Positions 21,889-45,946 of a DNA stretch of 64,000 nucleotides are shown piece after piece (positions within the stretch are counted from its first letter, which is position 1; the number at the start of each line of letters is the position of its first letter). A model generated the notes under the pieces. The model was not told the origin of the DNA, did not search any database, and was given only the letters and a program-made list of their open reading frames with translations. The stretch lies in NCBI GenBank assembly GCA_965205025.1, contig CBDBFU010000003.1, positions 64,001 through 128,000 of the forward strand, written 5' to 3'. Source of the stretch: Candidatus Poribacteria bacterium (GTDB lineage: Bacteria; Poribacteria; WGA-4E; WGA-3G). A program made the position numbers and the translations under genes.

Positions 21889-22124
21889 ATTGAATCTAAT
21901 AGAGAATACCCATATCAGCTGGTAGGACCAGTCATCTAACCTTCTCATTTAAATAGTAGAACAAATTCTTACTTGTACCTTAGAAAATTCACCAACAATA
22001 ACAAGTAAGAACAATCAATTTACGAATCATAGCCACACCTAATCTTATTTGCTTTATTGTAAAAAAAATGGTATCATTAACCAACCGAGAATGGGTATTC
22101 GGTTTTTACCGAGTGAGGAATTGA

Positions 22125-22460
22125 ATGCGTTCATTTTTTCTCTCATTATCAATCTTGTCAAGCCTGATCGGCCTCTATTTTATTTTCCGCGGATGTATAC
22201 ATCCAACATTATACACTAAGGAATTATCAAAAGAGAATACAACTGCTGTAAGGGTTACCCAAGTATATACTGAGGCTACTTATCGGGTTGTTCTGGGTAT
22301 CGGTTTTACTTCATTTGCTATCTTTACAGGCATATCAGGATTATTGATTTCAACTGATGAAGTAAAAAAGGAGATTGCCTTCGTAATTGGTAAGATTACA
22401 AAGAAGACATCAGTTTCATCAGAATCAGACAGTGCCCAAGACGAGAAGGATGAATCTTGA
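22125..22460 (+). CDS. Hypothetical two-TM membrane protein
   Basis: Two hydrophobic segments; stop overlaps the yggS start. Confidence 0.6.
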   Translation: MRSFFLSLSILSSLIGLYFIFRGCIHPTLYTKELSKENTTAVRVTQVYTEATYRVVLGIGFTSFAIFTGISGLLISTDEVKKEIAFVIGKITKKTSVSSESDSAQDEKDES

Positions 22461-23185
22461 ATCAAATTACACAGAATCTTGATACCGTGAAGCAACGCAT
22501 TACAGATGCCGCACAACGGAGCGGGAGATTACCTGAAAAGATAGGACTTATTGCTGTAACCAAAGGAGTTGACGTTTCACAGATTCAAAACATAATTGAT
22601 GAAGGGGTCACTGATATCGGGGAAAACAGGATTCAAGAAGCACAAAAAAAATATGACATTATCAATCAAAGTAAAGAGAACGGAACACAAGAAAATAATA
22701 TAAACTGCAATTGCAACTGGCATCTGATAGGACATCTACAACGAAATAAGGTTAAATCTGCTTTAGAGATGTTCTCACTAATTCATTCAGTAGATAGCAT
22801 TCGCTTATATAAAGAGATATCTAATCGGTCTAAAGAAAAAAAGAATCCAACGAGAGTCTTATTACAAATTAATACAACAGGGGAAGTCAGCAAATTCGGT
22901 ATAGCTGTAGATGAAGTAATAAGTTTTATAGAGGAGGCACATACATATCCTAATGTGGCGATATGTGGATTGATGACAATTGGTATTTTAAGTGTTTCAC
23001 CAGAGGATAATCGTCCAGCTTTTGAATTACTCAGGAATCTATCTGAGAAAATTGAAAAACAACAATTTTCTGGTGTTGAAATGCAATATCTATCAATGGG
23101 TATGACGAATGATTTTGAAATTGCAATTGAAGAAGGAGCAAACTTAGTTAGAATAGGAACTGCTATCTTTGGTATAGATAACTAA
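22457..23185 (+). CDS. yggS: PLP homeostasis protein YggS
   Basis: IAVTK, GENRIQE, WHLIGHLQRNK, LSMGMTNDFEIAIEEGA..VRIGTAIFG. Confidence 0.95.
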   Translation: MNQITQNLDTVKQRITDAAQRSGRLPEKIGLIAVTKGVDVSQIQNIIDEGVTDIGENRIQEAQKKYDIINQSKENGTQENNINCNCNWHLIGHLQRNKVKSALEMFSLIHSVDSIRLYKEISNRSKEKKNPTRVLLQINTTGEVSKFGIAVDEVISFIEEAHTYPNVAICGLMTIGILSVSPEDNRPAFELLRNLSEKIEKQQFSGVEMQYLSMGMTNDFEIAIEEGANLVRIGTAIFGIDN

Positions 23186-23282
23186 TAATTATTTGACGAT
23201 CACTCTATTGTTGAAGTTGATAGTGGTAACGGAATATAATGCTGAGTAAGAGAGTATAAATGACGATTAGTGGAGAGAATAA

Positions 23283-24098
23283 GTGGAAGAATACCTTAAA
23301 TTAGGTGTGATTGGTATAGGGAAAATGGGAGGTATTATTGTCAGAAGTATTGTAAATGACCTTCTTTCTCCACAACATATCTCAATTGTTGATCTTGATC
23401 AAAAACTTGTATCCCAATTGTGTGATGAAACTGGGGTGACAGCCGTATCAGACATACCAGAATTGTTAACTACTACAGATTATATTCTATGTGCTGTTCC
23501 TCCTGTTGCTATTCCAAATATCCTACCTCAGATATCCGAAAGTATAACAGATAAACAGTGGTTGATTAGCATAGCAGCTGGAGTATCAACAACAACTTTG
23601 GAATCATATTTTGATTCTCCTCCACCAATAGTACGAGTTATGCCAAATATTGCCGCTTCAGTTGGGGCTGCGGTTTCTGTCATATCTGCTGGTATTGCTG
23701 CTAAGGAAGGACATCTAAAGCAAACACAAAATGTGTTTGATACTTGTGGTATTACACTAATCATGGAAGAACGTCATATAAATGCTGTAACAGGAGTAAG
23801 TGGTAGCGGTCCTGCTTATGTCGCACTTTTTATTGAGGCATTAGCTGATGCAGGAGTTCTGGTTGGTCTTCCGCGTCAAGATGCACAGACTTTAGCAATC
23901 CACACTGTATTAGGAGCAGCAACTATTATGACGGAATCTAATGAACACCCAGCAACGTTAAAAAATCGTGTAACGACTCCAGGCGGAACAACTGCCGCTG
24001 GACTTCATGCACTTGAAAAGGGTGGATTAAGGGCGACAATTACTGAAGCAATACTTTCAGCCACAGAACGAGCAAAAGAACTTGATACGAGTAATTAA
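23283..24098 (+). CDS. proC: Pyrroline-5-carboxylate reductase
   Basis: GIGKMG, ISIAAG, VRVMPN, GSGPAY, VTTPGGTT. Confidence 0.95.
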   Translation: MEEYLKLGVIGIGKMGGIIVRSIVNDLLSPQHISIVDLDQKLVSQLCDETGVTAVSDIPELLTTTDYILCAVPPVAIPNILPQISESITDKQWLISIAAGVSTTTLESYFDSPPPIVRVMPNIAASVGAAVSVISAGIAAKEGHLKQTQNVFDTCGITLIMEERHINAVTGVSGSGPAYVALFIEALADAGVLVGLPRQDAQTLAIHTVLGAATIMTESNEHPATLKNRVTTPGGTTAAGLHALEKGGLRATITEAILSATERAKELDTSN

Positions 24099-24112
24099 GA
24101 AGGAACAAAGTT

Positions 24113-24373
24113 GTGGAACTATTGGCTGGATTACTCAAACATCTCTTAAACATTTACATGCTTGTTATTATCCTGAATGTAATTTTATCATGGGTTGTAT
24201 TCGGTACACAGAATATAGTCATTCGTCGGATTTATCTGGTTACAGGACAATTCGTTGATCCCCTATTGCAACCGATTCGAACATTTCTAAATCCAATGAC
24301 TCGAAACATTGGAATTGATTTTTCTCCAATTGTCTTAATTGTACTCTTAGGTATACTTGAATCATGGTTATAA
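24113..24373 (+). CDS. yggT: YggT family membrane protein
   Basis: ILSWV, DPLLQPIR, IDFSPIV. Confidence 0.9.
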   Translation: MELLAGLLKHLLNIYMLVIILNVILSWVVFGTQNIVIRRIYLVTGQFVDPLLQPIRTFLNPMTRNIGIDFSPIVLIVLLGILESWL

Positions 24374-24448
24374 TTTTAGAGGCTTTAGCCTACTCTGGCT
24401 TGTATACATGATTCTTCTTAATCTTTATAAACAAATCAAACCTGTCTT

Positions 24449-27025
24449 ATGAAAAAGACGAACACACCTACACGGAACTCTAATTCAGATCCTTCTAAGA
24501 GTCTAATCCATAAAAAACCAGTTTCTACAAAAGTACAAGAGTCTACATTCGAATACAGACTTGCTTCGGATATAGTCCAATTTTGGACAACACAAAACGT
24601 CTATTCGGACAAGGAAAAAAACTCTGAAACACCAACTTCTGTGATTCGAGAGATGCCTACACCTGTTTCTACACTCAGTTTTGATACATTACGTAGGAAA
24701 CTATATCAAGATACATACCTTAAATTTGAATTGATGCAAGGCAACTCTGTCAATTACACTCCATTATGGGAGACTTTTCCATTTAGTATTGAATCTATTG
24801 TAATAAAAGGCAATAATGACACTGCAAATATGACCAAATTTAGAAAGCAATGTCGTCAAATTTTTGCACAACATCTAAAATCTCAACAAGAGAAATTTAT
24901 TAATCTTGGTATTTTTGCTGATTGGAAATCTGCTGAAAAATCTTTAGATACACGATATGAAACAAAAATGTTTTCTCATTTTGACAGATTACGTGAACAT
25001 AGTTTTTTACGAGATGAATTACGACTCAGTCATTGGTGTCCAAACTGTATTTTACCTTTGGAATCTGGAAAAACTGTAAACACCATTTCTACTTCAGAAT
25101 TATATACTTATGTTAAGTTTCCATTAAATATTGGTTATGAAGATTTTGGAAAGAATGTCTACTTTACCATTCAATTTACAGAAAAACAACTATGGGAAGT
25201 AGTCGGAACTATAGCATTAGGGATAACAAATAATGTTACATATTGGTTAACACACTATCAAGATGATTATCTAATTTTTGCTGAGCCTCATCTAAAGAAA
25301 TTCGTTGGTAGAAGCAAAAAACCTAAATTATGTCCTAAACCTATAGCAAAATTAGATGTTGGCACACTAAAAGATTGTACTGTTACCCATCCACTTTTTT
25401 CTCTAAACGAATTACCTATCGTTATTATTCCAGATGGGGTAATCTCTAATATTGCTGAATTTGATAATCGTAAGGAATTAATCTCTGGGATCATTCCAAT
25501 AAACCCATCACATCATACACTAAGTTATTCAATCATAAACTCTTTAGATGATTTCGAAGAGACAGACTTAAAATCACTTATACATTCTACATCAACTGCA
25601 CCAATATTTGACGAGAATGGAAGGTTCACTGAAGATGCAGACACACTATGTGGGTTAGATTTGTCTCAAGTTACGCCTTTTATAACTGATGAATTTGAAG
25701 CAAAAGGTATGTTAATAAAAACGCGAAAACAGATGACAAAACAGCATCAATGTCAAATTTGCGAAGGCATTTCAGTGTCTCGACCTTATCGACACTGGGT
25801 TTTTTCATTCGGGGCAAGTGAGATAAAGCGAGAAGTAACCAATTCCCCTGAATATTGGGAACATTATGATGAAAGTCTACGAAATCTTATTCTTGGTGAA
25901 GTAGCAAAAGTTAATGAATTGACTGTATCTTCAGAAAGACAGTGGGGAATACCGCTACCTGTTCTAAGGTGTGATAACTGTAATGAGCTATTAGCAGATA
26001 AAAAAATACTTCGATCTGTGAGGAGTTCTATTCGTAGAGGTGCTGAACAATGGTTTCGTTTGAGTGTTGAAGAACTCTTGCCAGCAGAAACTGTATGCGA
26101 AAATTGTAATTCCAAAGATTTTAGGAAAGAATCAACATATATCGAAAGTTACTTTGCAAATTTGTTGCAAGCACTTGATACATCAGATTTTAAGAAAACG
26201 GTACATGAATCATTTAATAGTATTGCATTTGTACCTGAAGCAAAATTTATTGAGTGGTTGGGACAATTAAGTATAATTTCTGCTTCTCTTCAACAAAGTA
26301 GACCAACAAAAGATAGCCAACCCTATAAGAATCTACGAATAATTCCATTATCAGATATATCAAATGATTCAGAGATTCAGGATACTATTATAGAGAAATA
26401 TCCCGCCGATGTAATAAGAATTGTATCTTTAGGCACAAATTTACAGAATGCTAATTCTGACGAGGACATTCCTGAGTATCTTGAATCCCAAATGAAAAAG
26501 ACTAATAGTAAGTATATACAATTGAAGATTTTACTAACAAACGCCATAGAAGTTAGTATGAAACTTGAAAATAGTAATAGCACAAAACAGAGAAGAAGGA
26601 GAACATTTAATCCGATTACTTTCAAAATACAAAACCTAAAAGAGACTGACTATTTGACATTATCAAAAATTAACGATTCAATTAGTAGGATAGACGAAGC
26701 ATACCAGTCAAAAACATATCATATCATCTTTGATTTACTATCGGATTTATGTGTTGAAGAATTTGTTAAGTATATACAATTGTGTCAAAATGACCTTACT
26801 GAGGAAAACTTAAAATCTACCCAAAGTACAATAACGGCAATTTTGAAAGTTGTAATTCAAAGACTTGCTCCTATTACACCATTCTTAGCAGAGGATTTAA
26901 ATAAAGCAGTATTTACCTCTTCAAAAAGTATTTTTGAAGAAAAATGGGTTAATTTACCACAAACTAATTGGAATGATGACATGGTTGAGGAGTGGAAGAC
27001 TCTCATATCAAAAAACAATAAATGA
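24449..27025 (+). CDS. Isoleucyl-tRNA synthetase homologue with degenerate catalytic motifs (probable pseudoenzyme)
   Basis: IleRS-like architecture (LGIFADW, WCPNC, YVKFPL, HPLF, DENGRFTEDA, RQWGIPLP, ELLP..CENC..FRKE, PYK, IIEKYPADVIR, LAPITPFLAE) in the yggT-ileS-lspA position; no HIGH or KMSKS. Confidence 0.85.
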   Translation: MKKTNTPTRNSNSDPSKSLIHKKPVSTKVQESTFEYRLASDIVQFWTTQNVYSDKEKNSETPTSVIREMPTPVSTLSFDTLRRKLYQDTYLKFELMQGNSVNYTPLWETFPFSIESIVIKGNNDTANMTKFRKQCRQIFAQHLKSQQEKFINLGIFADWKSAEKSLDTRYETKMFSHFDRLREHSFLRDELRLSHWCPNCILPLESGKTVNTISTSELYTYVKFPLNIGYEDFGKNVYFTIQFTEKQLWEVVGTIALGITNNVTYWLTHYQDDYLIFAEPHLKKFVGRSKKPKLCPKPIAKLDVGTLKDCTVTHPLFSLNELPIVIIPDGVISNIAEFDNRKELISGIIPINPSHHTLSYSIINSLDDFEETDLKSLIHSTSTAPIFDENGRFTEDADTLCGLDLSQVTPFITDEFEAKGMLIKTRKQMTKQHQCQICEGISVSRPYRHWVFSFGASEIKREVTNSPEYWEHYDESLRNLILGEVAKVNELTVSSERQWGIPLPVLRCDNCNELLADKKILRSVRSSIRRGAEQWFRLSVEELLPAETVCENCNSKDFRKESTYIESYFANLLQALDTSDFKKTVHESFNSIAFVPEAKFIEWLGQLSIISASLQQSRPTKDSQPYKNLRIIPLSDISNDSEIQDTIIEKYPADVIRIVSLGTNLQNANSDEDIPEYLESQMKKTNSKYIQLKILLTNAIEVSMKLENSNSTKQRRRRTFNPITFKIQNLKETDYLTLSKINDSISRIDEAYQSKTYHIIFDLLSDLCVEEFVKYIQLCQNDLTEENLKSTQSTITAILKVVIQRLAPITPFLAEDLNKAVFTSSKSIFEEKWVNLPQTNWNDDMVEEWKTLISKNNK

Positions 27026-27540
27026 AATATGACAATGGTGTGTTATATAACGTGTTGAAAAAAATTAGAAACCTAAAGACAATATTACCATTAGTTTTAG
27101 TGGCAATACCAATTTTTATTCTTGATTATGTGACAAAATTATTAATCCAAATGTATATTCCTGAGGGAACAGGATACCCGATAATTCCAGGTTTCTTCAA
27201 TTTAAGACATGATAGAAATAGTGGTGCTGCCTTTGGTATATTAGCTGATCAACGTACCTTTCTTGTTTTAGTAACTATTGTTGCACTTATTTTTATCTTT
27301 TTTTACTATTTTCGATTTAGACACAGTGGATGGATGCGGATATCACTTGGGTTTCTATTAGGTGGGGCTGTTGGGAACTTCTTAGATCGAATTGTCTTAG
27401 GTGAGGTCGTTGACTTCCTTCAATTTGGAATAGTAAGTAAAAGACTATACTGGCCAACTTTTAATGTCGCTGATATTTCTGTTTGTATCGGGGCAGGGAT
27501 GTTAATTGTATATCTTTTTCGTCTTCAAAGTACAGAATGA
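27022..27540 (+). CDS. lspA: Lipoprotein signal peptidase II
   Basis: LDYVTK, NSGAAFG, GAVGNFLDR, VVDF, WPTFNVADI. Confidence 0.96.
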   Translation: MKYDNGVLYNVLKKIRNLKTILPLVLVAIPIFILDYVTKLLIQMYIPEGTGYPIIPGFFNLRHDRNSGAAFGILADQRTFLVLVTIVALIFIFFYYFRFRHSGWMRISLGFLLGGAVGNFLDRIVLGEVVDFLQFGIVSKRLYWPTFNVADISVCIGAGMLIVYLFRLQSTE

Positions 27541-27617
27541 GTATTACAGTAAATTAATGATGAACATAATTTTCATGGATAGATCTGTTCCATTTATATT
27601 AGGATGATAAAAAATCA

Positions 27618-28193
27618 ATGAATAATTATACAATACTATACAGTTTTCTCCTATTATTTTTGCCATTCATGATAACCAATCAATCACAGGCACAATTCAT
27701 ACCACAACAAACACAAGAGACACCGGATTCTGAATATCATGAAAGTGCTTTAAGAAGATTTGAAATTATCACCTTAAGTGCTTTCCCTTTCACTGCTGTT
27801 CATAGTTATTTAGGTGTACGAGGTATACAAATGATACAACAGAATAAGATCGCTCCTGTCCTAACACCTAAGAATTATAGAATCATGGGAATTAGTGCAG
27901 TTTCTTTATCTCTATTTATTGGGGTGTGGGATTGGTACCATACTCGCAATGTTGATAGATCTGAACCCAGTATCCCTGGTCACGAACATCCATCTCCACC
28001 ACAAGATGAGATTCCTGACGATGGTAGTATTGCTCGTGCAACCTACTATGGACCATATTCGACAAATATATATTTGAATAATCAGTCTCCTAATCAAATT
28101 CCCTCCATGAAACCGTTATGTATGGGATTGAATAAATGGATGAACGAACAATCTACGCTGATTTCTCTTACATTGCTTGAAATACGCTTTTAA
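27618..28193 (+). CDS. Hypothetical membrane protein
   Basis: Signal peptide; ESALRRFEII..AFPFT hydrophobic hairpin. Confidence 0.65.
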   Translation: MNNYTILYSFLLLFLPFMITNQSQAQFIPQQTQETPDSEYHESALRRFEIITLSAFPFTAVHSYLGVRGIQMIQQNKIAPVLTPKNYRIMGISAVSLSLFIGVWDWYHTRNVDRSEPSIPGHEHPSPPQDEIPDDGSIARATYYGPYSTNIYLNNQSPNQIPSMKPLCMGLNKWMNEQSTLISLTLLEIRF

Positions 28194-28253
28194 GGATAAG
28201 TTTATTCTGATATATTAATTCTTACCATATTCCTATGAGATAATTTTGAATAA

Positions 28254-29235
28254 ATGCGTATACTCTTTATGGGCACAAGTGAATTTGCTGTTCCTGCTTT
28301 AAAATGAACTTATTGTCCAGAATTTCAATATCATTGGGGTTGTAACACAACCAGACAGACCCAAAGGCAGAGGAAGAAAATTAAGTCCTTCCCCAATAAA
28401 ATCACTTGCAACAGAACACAGTCTTCAGATAATCCAACCAGAGAAAATTAGAATGAAGGAATCTGTAGATGAATTGTTAAAACTCCAACCTGATGTCATA
28501 GTCGTTGCTGCCTTTGGACAACTTCTCCCACAGACAATATTAGACATTCCTCCTTGTGGAGTCATTAATATACATCCTTCCATACTTCCAAAATATAGAG
28601 GGGCAGCACCAATACAATGGGCAGTAATAAATGGAGAAAAGGAGACTGGTGTGTCTCTCATGTTATTAGACCAAGGTGAAGATACAGGAGATGTAATATC
28701 TATTGATAAAGTAAAGATTACTGATGAAGATACAGTAAAAACTGTACACGACAAATTAGCGAATTTAGGAGCAAAACGACTCGCTGCTTTAATAGCAAAA
28801 TTACCTAAAGAAAAACCTCCTTCAGCAATACCACAGAATCATAAGAATGCTACCCATGCACCACGACTCACTAAAGAGATTGGACATATTAATTGGAATC
28901 ATAATGCTACTGATATCCATAACCTAATACGAGGAACTATGGGGTGGCCAGGAGCATCAACTGTATACGGGGAAGGATTACAGGTAAAAATCATAAAGGA
29001 CTATACCACATAAAAATAGAAAACACTGCTGTTGATACCACATTAAAGAAACAACCAGGTAGAATACAGATTACTGCAGAACGCAAAATTGTATGTAATC
29101 ACTGGCGAAGGTGAACTTCAGATACTACAAGTTCAACCTGCTACAAAAACTGTCATGGAAGTTAGTGACTTTATCAATGGATATCAAATTAAGACTGGAG
29201 ATCGTTTCTATAGGTTAAATAGTAATCCAGAGTAA
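28254..29235 (+). CDS. fmt: Methionyl-tRNA formyltransferase; frameshifts near 28305, 29010 and 29090 are probably sequencing errors
   Basis: MRILFMGTSEFAVPAL, VVTQPDRPKGRG, INIHPSILPKYRGAAPIQWA, QVQPATK..EVSDFING. Confidence 0.9.
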
Positions 29236-30212: not shown

Positions 30213-30267
30213 AATTTCTCCTATCAAATTGATTAGAATATTAAAGTATATCGTATATTAACTAACA

Positions 30268-30940
30268 ATGAATATTAAAAATGTAGACACACCTAAAATT
30301 GCACCATCCCTATTAGCAGCTGATTTCAGTTGTTTTGGTGATGAGGTGGAACGCGTAACACAAGCTGGGGCGGATCTACTTCATTTCGATGTCATGGATG
30401 GTGTCTTGGTGCCAAATTTCGGTATTAGTCCTCCTTTAATTGCTTCAGTACGTGATAAGACAAAGCTCGTATTTGATGTTCATATTATGGTAGCACATCC
30501 ACTTTCTTATATTGAGGCACTCGTTGACGCCGGGTCAGACATAATTACATTTCATATTGAATCACATGATGATCCAAATAAAGTTATAGAAGCAATTAAA
30601 AAATATAATGTTTCTGTAGGAATAGCATATTCCCCGAATACCCAAAACAGATGCTGTTATACCATACCTATCCTATATTGACCTAATTTTACCAATGAGT
30701 GTTGAACCGGGATTTGGTGGGCAAAGTTTTTTGCCGAATACCTTAGAAAAAATTAAAGAATTGCATAATCTCATAAATGATTTAGATAATTCTCCTGATA
30801 TATCTGTAGATGGTGGAGTGACAACAGTAATTAGTCCTTCCGCAATACAGAATGGGGCAACTATACTTGTTGCAGGTACAGCAATTTTAAAGAGTGATAA
30901 TCCACAGGAAATTATAAAACAGTTACGTACAGTAGAATAG
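30268..30940 (+). CDS. rpe: Ribulose-phosphate 3-epimerase (frameshift near 30640)
   Basis: IAPSLLAADF, HFDVMDG, DVHIM, MSVEPGFGGQ, VDGG split over two ORFs. Confidence 0.92.

Positions 30941-45870: not shown

Positions 45871-45946
<76 letters not shown>

Follow-up and report, generated by a model that had tools for sequence, protein, structure and literature searches.

What is a full-length isoleucyl-tRNA synthetase (IleRS) gene kept for once its catalytic motifs are gone? The question is raised by a locus of a Candidatus Poribacteria bacterium, which lies in the window, i.e. the whole stretch of 64,000 nucleotides analysed here (positions 64001–128000 of contig CBDBFU010000003.1, named C3 in the following). 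The contig belongs to the 5.66-Mb assembly GCA_965205025.1 (G000), which consists of 33 contigs and has a marker completeness of 95.5%. At positions 24449–27025 of the plus strand, a single uninterrupted open reading frame (ORF) of 858 codons encodes the protein P0001, which is referred to as pseudo-IleRS together with its homologues. An earlier note on this DNA, made from its letters and their translations, had taken it for a type-1 IleRS (IleRS1) homologue with dead active sites that was repurposed for RNA binding or regulation, and had placed the real IleRS, perhaps of type 2 (IleRS2), elsewhere in the genome. This interpretation is supported by the evidence presented below, from which pseudo-IleRS is quite likely an ancient pseudo-synthetase derived from IleRS1, left behind when IleRS2 took over and kept for a role other than tRNA charging.

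The affiliation with IleRS1 that was claimed for this stop-free ORF was confirmed, the similarity to IleRS being far above chance level. The Pfam domain tRNA-synt_1 (PF00133) was matched by residues 42–629 (E 1.1e-22) and Anticodon_1 (PF08264) by residues 738–855 (E 1.6e-13), and the best curated NCBIfam model was ileS (TIGR00392), for which the score of 162.3 bits lies below the equivalog cut-off of 621.4 bits. Among the sequences of solved structures, the nearest were IleRS1 proteins (8c9f, E 2.7e-26; 1ffy, E 7.6e-20), followed by the IleRS2 8c9d (E 1.4e-12). The structure predicted by AlphaFold2 from an 82-row alignment obtained a predicted local distance difference test score (pLDDT) of 82.8 and a predicted template modelling score (pTM) of 0.80, with pLDDT below 50 only at residues 1–32 and 711–714. 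In a Foldseek search of the PDB with this model, the first seven ranks were occupied by IleRS1 structures (E 2.4e-35 to 6e-31; best 8c9f, query-normalised template modelling score 0.56), and IleRS2, yeast IleRS, ValRS and LeuRS came after them; the ESM Atlas returned generic class I synthetase clusters only and delivered no functional lead. The Pfam, PDB sequence and Foldseek matches, together with the tree presented below, assign P0001 to the class Ia synthetase fold and to the IleRS1 lineage. Compared to IleRS1 of Priestia megaterium (8c9e/8c9f) and S. aureus (1qu2/1ffy), pseudo-IleRS shares the fold and, in identical order, the Rossmann core, the CP1/editing insertion, the four-cysteine clusters and the anticodon-binding domain, as well as the slot upstream of lspA and the grouping in the tree. 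It differs from them by the loss of HIGH, KMSKS, GWDxHG, WTTTPWT, the editing His/Asp, DVWFDSG, EGxDQxRGWF and the zinc (Zn) tail, and by a basic disordered tail which replaces the conserved N-terminus.

The signature motifs of IleRS (HIGH, KMSKS, WTTTPWT, GWDxHGLP and others) served as reference, and their columns were read from alignments of the P0001 family with true IleRS1 proteins. All catalytic and editing strings listed as replacements in the earlier note are present in the translation and fall into the expected IleRS columns. The HIGH equivalent (residues 66–81, IREMPTPVSTLSFDTL; 24644–24691) includes PTPVSTLSFDT at residues 70–80 and has no His-x-Gly-His; its HIGH column reads TLSFDT, which is neither HxGH nor GxHH. 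The equivalent of GWDxHGLP (residues 105–115, PLWETFPFSIE; 24761–24793) holds LWETFPFS at residues 106–113, with W107 invariant in 20/20 rows of alignment A2. In the editing domain, the threonine-rich WTTTPWT is replaced by QFTEKQLWEVVGT (residues 242–254; 25172–25210; QFTEKQLWE at residues 242–250), and the second editing motif corresponds to residues 345–360, ISGIIPINPSHHTLSY (25481–25528), with SGIIPINPSHHTLS at residues 346–359. The counterpart of GTGxVHxAPGHGxxDY there is SGIIPINPSHHTLSY, in which His is replaced by Pro and Asp by Ser; H355 and S359 of this segment are invariant in the pseudo-IleRS family. The WCISRQR column reads ELTVSSER (residues 490–497), and DVWFDSG is represented by IESYFANLLQ (residues 565–574, ESYFAN at 566–571; 26141–26170). 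As was claimed, EGxDQxRGWF and KMSKS have no counterpart in P0001 in the alignments with true IleRS1, the motif being unrecognisable in the KMSKS-loop equivalent (residues 630–642; 26336–26374). At the C-terminus, the helical anticodon-binding domain persists as a remnant (Anticodon_1, residues 738–855; 26660–27013), and the alignment of P0001 and its homologues from family f1 (families of the phylum are coded f1 to f9) contains no IleRS1-type C-terminal Zn-binding domain. All these features lie on the plus strand, as do the four CxxC pairs that had been described as retained. These are CPNC (C197/C200; 25037–25048), CQIC (C435/C438; 25751–25762), CDNC (C508/C511; 25970–25981) and CENC (C550/C553; 26096–26107). 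The first pair is invariant in 82/82 family rows and its C197 is conserved in IleRS1 too; the second is invariant in the family and the third and fourth in alignments A1 and A2, and all three are conserved in IleRS1. In total, all eight cysteines are invariant among the 82 full-length members.

The family is well delimited. A word-indexed protein search with P0001 delivered 100 family proteins with E ≤1e-149 and 34–88% identity; after a gap, true IleRS followed at E 3e-35, being only about 21% identical. Those family members that bear an organism name come under Candidatus Poribacteria bacterium, and their database annotation is 'class I tRNA ligase family protein', 'hypothetical protein' or 'isoleucyl-tRNA synthetase'. 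None of the 100 family proteins contains KMSKS, H[IVLM]GH or WTTTPWT, the last of which was found in all 12 true IleRS1 matches. Columns invariant in 8/8 IleRS1 proteins number 213, and for 181 of them conservation in the pseudo-family does not reach 19 of its 21 rows. Both groups have 43 conserved columns in common, for the most part W, P, G and cysteine ligands; only 18 others reach the level of 19 rows in the pseudo-family without being conserved in IleRS1. A retained PADVIR segment is presumably the counterpart of the GADxxR motif of the stem-contact fold.

The segments that replaced the motifs are themselves conserved, with values of 0.67–0.88 versus a protein mean of 0.615 (HIGH equivalent 0.755, GWDxHGLP equivalent 0.808, and DVWFDSG equivalent 0.879, the most conserved of all); the exception is the KMSKS loop with 0.504. 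Stretches such as IREMPTPV, PLWETFPF, LWEIAGT, GIIPLNPAHHxLSY and IESxFANLLQ are conserved across the 82 aligned full-length members. Such conservation, along with the loss of the ATP-binding HIGH and KMSKS, speaks for a Rossmann pocket that was remodelled for a new function, be it a sensor of isoleucine, valine or leucine, a HisZ-like regulatory subunit or an SbzA-like aminoacyl-tRNA-dependent transferase. P70, E108 (in place of Asp) and W603 occupy what we take, from the structure of T. thermophilus IleRS, to be isoleucine-binding positions, so that some of these are kept or conservatively changed. IleRS1-like proteins with similarly degenerate motifs and a fused dehydrogenase domain (P0157, P0226 and P0194, see below) point in the same direction, and precedents are given by HisZ (PMC9437257) and SbzA (PMC12945691). 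HisZ, a bacterial HisRS paralogue and regulatory subunit of the ATP-phosphoribosyltransferase HisG, lacks aminoacylation activity and is kept for a non-catalytic role in ligand sensing or regulation, which resembles what is predicted for pseudo-IleRS; it has in common with pseudo-IleRS the loss of the catalytic signatures, and selection and conservation beside a functional synthetase. HisZ differs in being a class II protein which has HisG as partner and histidine as ligand and which represents an extra copy, whereas pseudo-IleRS is of class Ia and monomer type and would have arisen in place from the housekeeping gene. SbzA, which acts in SB-203208 biosynthesis, combines the full IleRS architecture with a non-housekeeping use. 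It keeps HYGH, the KMSKS lysine and weak charging, has an active site which accommodates the acceptor substrate, and is encoded in a biosynthetic cluster (PMC12945691); pseudo-IleRS has neither motif and its neighbours are proC, yggT, lspA and fmt. Besides this difference, the pocket residues drift across the phylum (the GWD column reads WN, WD, WQ or WE depending on the family), none of the 18 columns specific to the pseudo-family lies within the former motif segments, and no co-varying partner gene is visible in the locus. A new function of the pocket is thus considered improbable as the explanation of pseudo-IleRS.

If pseudo-IleRS is a dead synthetase, a working IleRS has to be encoded elsewhere, as the earlier note had proposed. 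A search of G000 with PF00133 revealed five class Ia-type genes. One of them, on contig C27 (locus L002, 229–3402, minus strand), encodes an intact IleRS of 1057 amino acids (aa) with GWDTHGLP, WTTTPWT and KMSKS, which carries the type-2 C-terminal domain DUF5915 and scores 977.8 bits with TIGR00392. Contig C14 encodes ValRS, and the remaining PF00133 matches are located in open frames of 856, 639 and 500 aa. The enzyme of C27 displays GVHH instead of HxGH. According to Brkic et al. (10.1101/2023.01.31.526100), a natural variant of the GxHH type is linked to mupirocin hyper-resistance in IleRS2, and the swap of HxGH to GxHH introduced into IleRS1 abolishes activity. In this genome, isoleucine charging seems to depend on IleRS2 alone. 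Pseudo-IleRS is predicted neither to activate isoleucine nor to charge tRNA, because its motifs are lost and IleRS1 does not tolerate the swap in the HIGH motif.

The same situation was met in the phylum. TIGR00392 was matched above cut-off in 145/151 genomes, nearly always in open frames of 1045–1190 aa, with two cut short at about 770 aa; DUF5915 was confirmed for G000, and the assignment in the other genomes is given by the TIGR00392 score. Two of the six genomes below cut-off show partial matches on short contigs, starting at most 10 bases from the contig end. The other four show no IleRS apart from pseudo-IleRS, which, with the full synthetase architecture that is kept, would suit a highly divergent enzyme, IleRS or other synthetase, that is still active with unconventional active-site residues. 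This is hardly credible when HIGH, KMSKS and 181 of the 213 invariant IleRS1 columns are lost, the ileS score is 162 bits against a cut-off of 621 bits, and the mere swap of HxGH to GxHH inactivates IleRS1 (10.1101/2023.01.31.526100). Moreover, a canonical IleRS2 was found in the 145 genomes, including every listed single-contig genome, and the four exceptions are assemblies of 120–290 contigs. As a side observation, IleRS2 of families f2 and f3 is encoded in longer open frames (1120–1194 aa), and its match to the ileS model is broken into an N-terminal piece and one of about 560 bits, compared to an unbroken match of about 970 bits elsewhere; an insertion is therefore suspected near model position 130.

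In order to follow the gene through the phylum, a family profile was searched in 151 sampled genomes, of which 136 gave a match (E ≤1e-15). With the genome of the window excluded, matches were obtained for 99/99 genomes of f1, 22/26 of f3, 4/4 of f4, 5/5 of f5, 2/2 of f6, 1/1 of f7 and 2/2 of f8, and for 0/10 of f2 and 0/1 of f9. The miss in f9 is attributed to an assembly edge, because a C-terminal piece of the gene sits at the start of the contig bearing lspA. The earlier note had placed the gene between yggT and lspA, and both the slot and the overlap with lspA were retrieved. Upstream on the plus strand are proC, coding for pyrroline-5-carboxylate reductase (23283–24098; Pfam P5CR_dimer, E 5.9e-41), which is a conserved neighbour, and a gene for a YggT-family membrane protein (24113–24373; Pfam YGGT, E 1e-15), separated by a gap of 75 bases from pseudo-IleRS. 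Downstream on the same strand follow lspA, encoding signal peptidase II (27022–27540; Pfam Peptidase_A8, E 8.7e-40), and ORF191 (27618–28193), a 191-aa ORF of unknown family with no Pfam match. The TGA stop of pseudo-IleRS (27023–27025) overlaps the ATG start of lspA (27022–27024) in an ATGA. The order proC-yggT-pseudo-IleRS-lspA-ORF191 was found in 12/12 loci of the same genus. In loci of distant families, lspA follows directly in 12/12 and proC is located upstream in 11/12, so that pseudo-IleRS directly precedes lspA in 24/24 loci examined; the suggestion to look for orthologues at this place in relatives thus led to the same slot phylum-wide. A homologue of ORF191 was detected after lspA in 12/12 genus loci, 11/12 distant loci and 4/5 loci from genomes without profile match.

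In several distant loci (L022, L023, L025, L026, L031 and L032), pseudo-IleRS is separated from yggT or proC by an additional ORF of about 185 aa. The one such ORF that was assigned (L025, 4444–5001, genome G140) encodes DivIVA (E 6.7e-33); no DivIVA was found in G000, at its 95.5% completeness. An ileS-lspA arrangement is known in E. coli and a divIVA-ileS...lspA arrangement in Gram-positive bacteria (Bacillus). The slot of pseudo-IleRS is regarded as the ancestral ileS slot, because its gene order resembles these two arrangements.

The descent of the family was addressed by a quick maximum-likelihood tree of 32 rows (LG+C20 PMSF, ValRS as outgroup), to be read with the caveats of a quick search, long branches, heterogeneous composition and IleRS1 rows taken from search matches only. 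In this tree, all 17 pseudo-copies group in a single clade (SH-aLRT 99) which is joined to 11 IleRS1 (99), and the IleRS of C27 groups with two other IleRS2 (98), apart from the pseudo-clade. Branching within the clade follows approximately the family codes, with f8 at the deepest position. HIGH and KMSKS are absent from all 21 aligned pseudo-IleRS rows; therefore, the synthetic site would have died before the sampled families diverged, and its inactivation is placed by the alignments before the radiation of the sampled phylum. Remnants of other functions survive in some lineages. The deepest member, from G041 (931 aa), keeps IGTPWT, GTGCV, DWGISRR and an IleRS1-like C-terminal CxxC...CxxC tail that is left in this lineage only (Pfam PF06827 gave no match to this protein at E up to 0.01), and members from f5 and f3 retain the editing-domain PGHxxDDY; all these remnants are lost in f1. 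Therefore, the editing site and the Zn tail probably decayed later, and the scaffold was kept.

Retention of a frame over such a depth may be active or passive, and the two were compared by pairwise ratios of nonsynonymous to synonymous divergence (dN/dS; Nei-Gojobori, bootstrap 95% intervals). Four pairs of pseudo-IleRS with dS of 0.17–0.52 gave 0.18 (0.14–0.23), 0.20 (0.16–0.25), 0.24 (0.20–0.30) and 0.16 (0.11–0.23). Three further pairs gave 0.147, 0.267 and 0.152, the last one at a saturated dS of 1.59, and the closest pair (dS 0.044) gave a noisy 0.45. The strongest constraint was observed in the Zn/CP2-3 and Rossmann parts (0.09–0.23). For comparison, values were 0.05–0.07 for IleRS2 of the same or sister genomes, 0.08–0.10 for proC in unsaturated pairs and 0.12–0.33 for ORF191. 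With dN/dS of 0.15–0.27, pseudo-IleRS is under clear purifying selection, and its frame is clearly kept by this selection and not by chance. The claim that the frame was retained despite the loss of the active sites is in agreement with these values (upper bounds 0.23–0.30), and simple decay found no support. Values of 1.16 and 1.37 for LspA in pairs with locus L009 were discarded as artefacts of a codon alignment shifted by a stop in L010 and L011. In these loci of the two closest relatives (L010 of G004, L011 of G018), the frame in which lspA begins in the window is closed by a stop at its second codon; the lspA start must therefore be a more distal one in these relatives, which do not share the ATGA overlap.

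These data bear on a further explanation, in which the gene is a slowly decaying relic without function whose frame is tolerated or kept for read-through of lspA transcription or translation. The overlap of its stop with the lspA start would fit such a relic, and so would its faster evolution (identity across the genus is about 50% for pseudo-IleRS versus about 70% for ProC and LspA), the shortened versions of 708–790 aa in f4, f6 and f3, and the deletion in two lineages, described below, which left the flanking genes undisturbed. Since even the two closest relatives lack the ATGA overlap, coupling to lspA cannot explain the retention. A relic is also at odds with dN/dS of 0.15–0.27 and upper bounds of at most 0.30, with open frames at phylum depth in 136/151 genomes, and with the invariance of all eight cysteines and many buried W, P and G positions. 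Eight of the listed profile matches, with open frames of 780–925 aa, were flagged with one or two stops; in G019, G021 and G005, the three genomes with two comparable searches, the flagged stops lie at match edges. Altogether, a functionless relic is judged very unlikely.

The reading that we favour for pseudo-IleRS, that of an ancient pseudo-synthetase with a non-charging role, would imply the following course of events. The ancestor was the type-1 IleRS of a (divIVA-)ileS-lspA locus; this descent is shown by the data above, as are the position of the gene, the loss of all signature motifs, the presence of a real IleRS2 and purifying selection. Once IleRS2 had become the working enzyme, the IleRS1 copy would have lost first the aminoacylation site and then the editing site. 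Selection would have maintained a folded protein of full architecture with two four-cysteine clusters, and the preserved synthetase scaffold would be used for binding a tRNA-like RNA, a ligand or a partner. A binding role is probable, because the architecture and both four-cysteine clusters are kept, the pocket segments are conserved and f1 gained a basic tail. This K/R/S/T-rich N-terminal tail (residues 1–38; 24449–24562, plus strand) is predicted to be disordered (pLDDT below 50 for residues 1–32) and has an isoelectric point (pI) of 10.1 versus 5.7 for the remainder of P0001. Basic tails occur in the sampled f1 members, and f3 proteins would have none, because they begin at about profile position 35. 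Basic disordered tails give some eukaryotic synthetases an unspecific affinity for tRNA. Provided that the role is one of binding, a tRNA(Ile)-like RNA, held in this family with the help of the basic tail, is put forward tentatively as the target; a protein partner seems rather doubtful, and a small ligand in a remodelled but conserved pocket more doubtful still.

A number of observations weigh against this interpretation or parts of it. No profile match was obtained in family f2 (0/10) and in genus g3 of f3 (0/4), and in 4/4 loci fetched from these two groups proC, yggT, lspA and ORF191 are contiguous. Since the flanking genes adjoin, pseudo-IleRS was cleanly deleted and is dispensable in some lineages, and its deletion in two lineages argues against an essential role. 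Pseudo-IleRS is three to four times less constrained than IleRS2. As to tRNA binding, conservation within the family is lowest in the anticodon-binding domain, which also has the highest dN/dS of the folded domains (0.28–0.36); with the Zn tail lost as well, anticodon-specific binding of tRNA would therefore be weakened. The N-terminal tail evolves fast and looks unconstrained (dN/dS 0.4–2.2), and the protein is not basic overall, with a pI of 6.1 and a family median of 6.2 that equals the value of true IleRS1 (6.2). A generally basic nucleic-acid binder, considered as a separate candidate, was rejected on this pI, the basic part being the N-terminal tail only. Finally, the genomes G004, G013, G151 and G139 gave no true IleRS, even in a search with the IleRS2 protein, and a pseudo-copy is present in each of them; marker completeness of G004 is 99%. 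If IleRS were truly absent there, the pseudo-copy would have to be active. These absences are probably assembly gaps of metagenome-assembled genomes (MAGs), because every listed single-contig genome has both genes.

Synthetase folds kept without charging are known from other cases. Sulfolobus LeuRS-I and the trypanosomatid TyrRS pseudo-dimer are examples given in PMC9437257. These two, like insect SLIMP and the HisRS-like domain of GCN2, which also retain the fold without tRNA charging, differ from pseudo-IleRS in synthetase family, host and origin, and none of them is a full-length bacterial IleRS. Pairs of IleRS1 and IleRS2 in Bacilli, known from mupirocin resistance, are similar in that two types are present per genome and type 2 tolerates an altered HIGH motif (10.1101/2022.02.09.479832; 10.1101/2023.01.31.526100); they differ in that both enzymes are active, with IleRS1 as the fast housekeeping enzyme, whereas the IleRS1 copy of the present genome is predicted to be dead. 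In the literature searched, supplements aside, no inactive IleRS copy is described, no paper joins Poribacteria and isoleucyl-tRNA synthetase, and SbzA was the sole IleRS-like protein found with a non-housekeeping use. The accessible part of a GTDB-wide IleRS survey of 2026 (10.64898/2026.02.03.703510), again supplements aside, does not mention inactive copies; sequences less than 30% identical to COG IleRS were filtered out there, and pseudo-IleRS would probably be among them.

Beyond the phylum, a profile of 20 pseudo-copies was searched against 1.84 billion representative proteins. The pseudo-family ranked first, and below it a continuum was obtained of intact IleRS1 and of IleRS1-like proteins with degenerate HIGH and KMSKS. 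The latter, in which other motifs are variably intact, include P0141, P0148, P0156, P0167, P0169, P0173, P0174, P0199, P0202, P0207, P0218 and P0221, and those that are named derive from MAGs, with the labels Bacillota, Armatimonadota, Candidatus Wallbacteria and (marine) Myxococcales/Deltaproteobacteria. They may represent independent pseudo-IleRS1 copies. Three larger proteins, P0157 (1441 aa), P0226 (1469 aa) and P0194 (1266 aa, Candidatus Wallbacteria), have an altered HIGH and KMSKS and a C-terminal fusion to a Glu/Leu/Phe/Val dehydrogenase domain, an architecture of which we have come across no description. Loci related to the degenerate protein P0156 of Armatimonadota were also inspected. 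Among 80 loci, only L048 is close (53% identity), and it encodes an intact IleRS1 (HLGH, WTTTPW, KQSKS; 881 bits), with an IleRS2-like gene present in the same genome. L048 is a case of co-occurrence of both IleRS types and not a second pseudo-copy locus. The degenerate proteins suggest that decayed IleRS1 copies have arisen recurrently without being recognised. It is conceivable, if rather unlikely, that takeover by IleRS2 repeatedly turns IleRS1 into a pseudo-synthetase which persists for a long time in a new function, and that the degenerate copies of other phyla belong to the same class. Under such repeated conversion, the product might be a sensor of isoleucine or uncharged tRNA(Ile) which feeds into envelope and lipoprotein maturation via the lspA operon, or into translation control.

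Pseudo-IleRS as interpreted here, a pseudo-synthetase derived from IleRS1, would belong to a known kind, the synthetase-derived pseudoenzymes; new would be its formation in place from a housekeeping IleRS1 and its conservation at phylum depth. Pseudoenzymes of the HisZ type show that translation enzymes are recycled into regulators, and an example that is full-length, bacterial and of class Ia, or that formed in place, was not found in print. The phylum would offer a dated natural experiment on the fate of IleRS1 after takeover by IleRS2, a fate that has, to our knowledge, been studied so far only where both enzymes stay active. The orthologues and the graded intermediates, in which editing motifs and Zn tail decay later, are suited for structure-function work on binding versus catalysis. 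On a practical level, the annotation of such proteins as tRNA ligase or IleRS can cause errors when genome completeness is checked, metabolism is reconstructed or IleRS phylogenies are inferred.

As to expression of the locus, pseudo-IleRS is probably co-expressed with lspA. A scan of positions 22000–29000 returned 29 promoter-like sites, with 31.6 expected, and four terminator-like sites, with 3.3 expected. Rfam at gathering thresholds detected a single tRNA in the whole window (45874–45946; tRNA-Ala(GGC) according to ARAGORN) and neither a T-box nor another leader upstream of pseudo-IleRS. Farther upstream, a PgeF-like laccase-domain gene and a gene for a YggS-like pyridoxal phosphate (PLP) protein precede proC and yggT, and downstream the order is lspA, ORF191, fmt, a gene for a PASTA-domain protein and rpe. 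Both fmt (28303–29235) and rpe (30262–30940) are split over two frames, their Pfam domains continuing in the other frame, which reflects genuine frameshifts or else indels introduced by the assembly. Near these split genes, the 2.5-kb frame of pseudo-IleRS stays uninterrupted.

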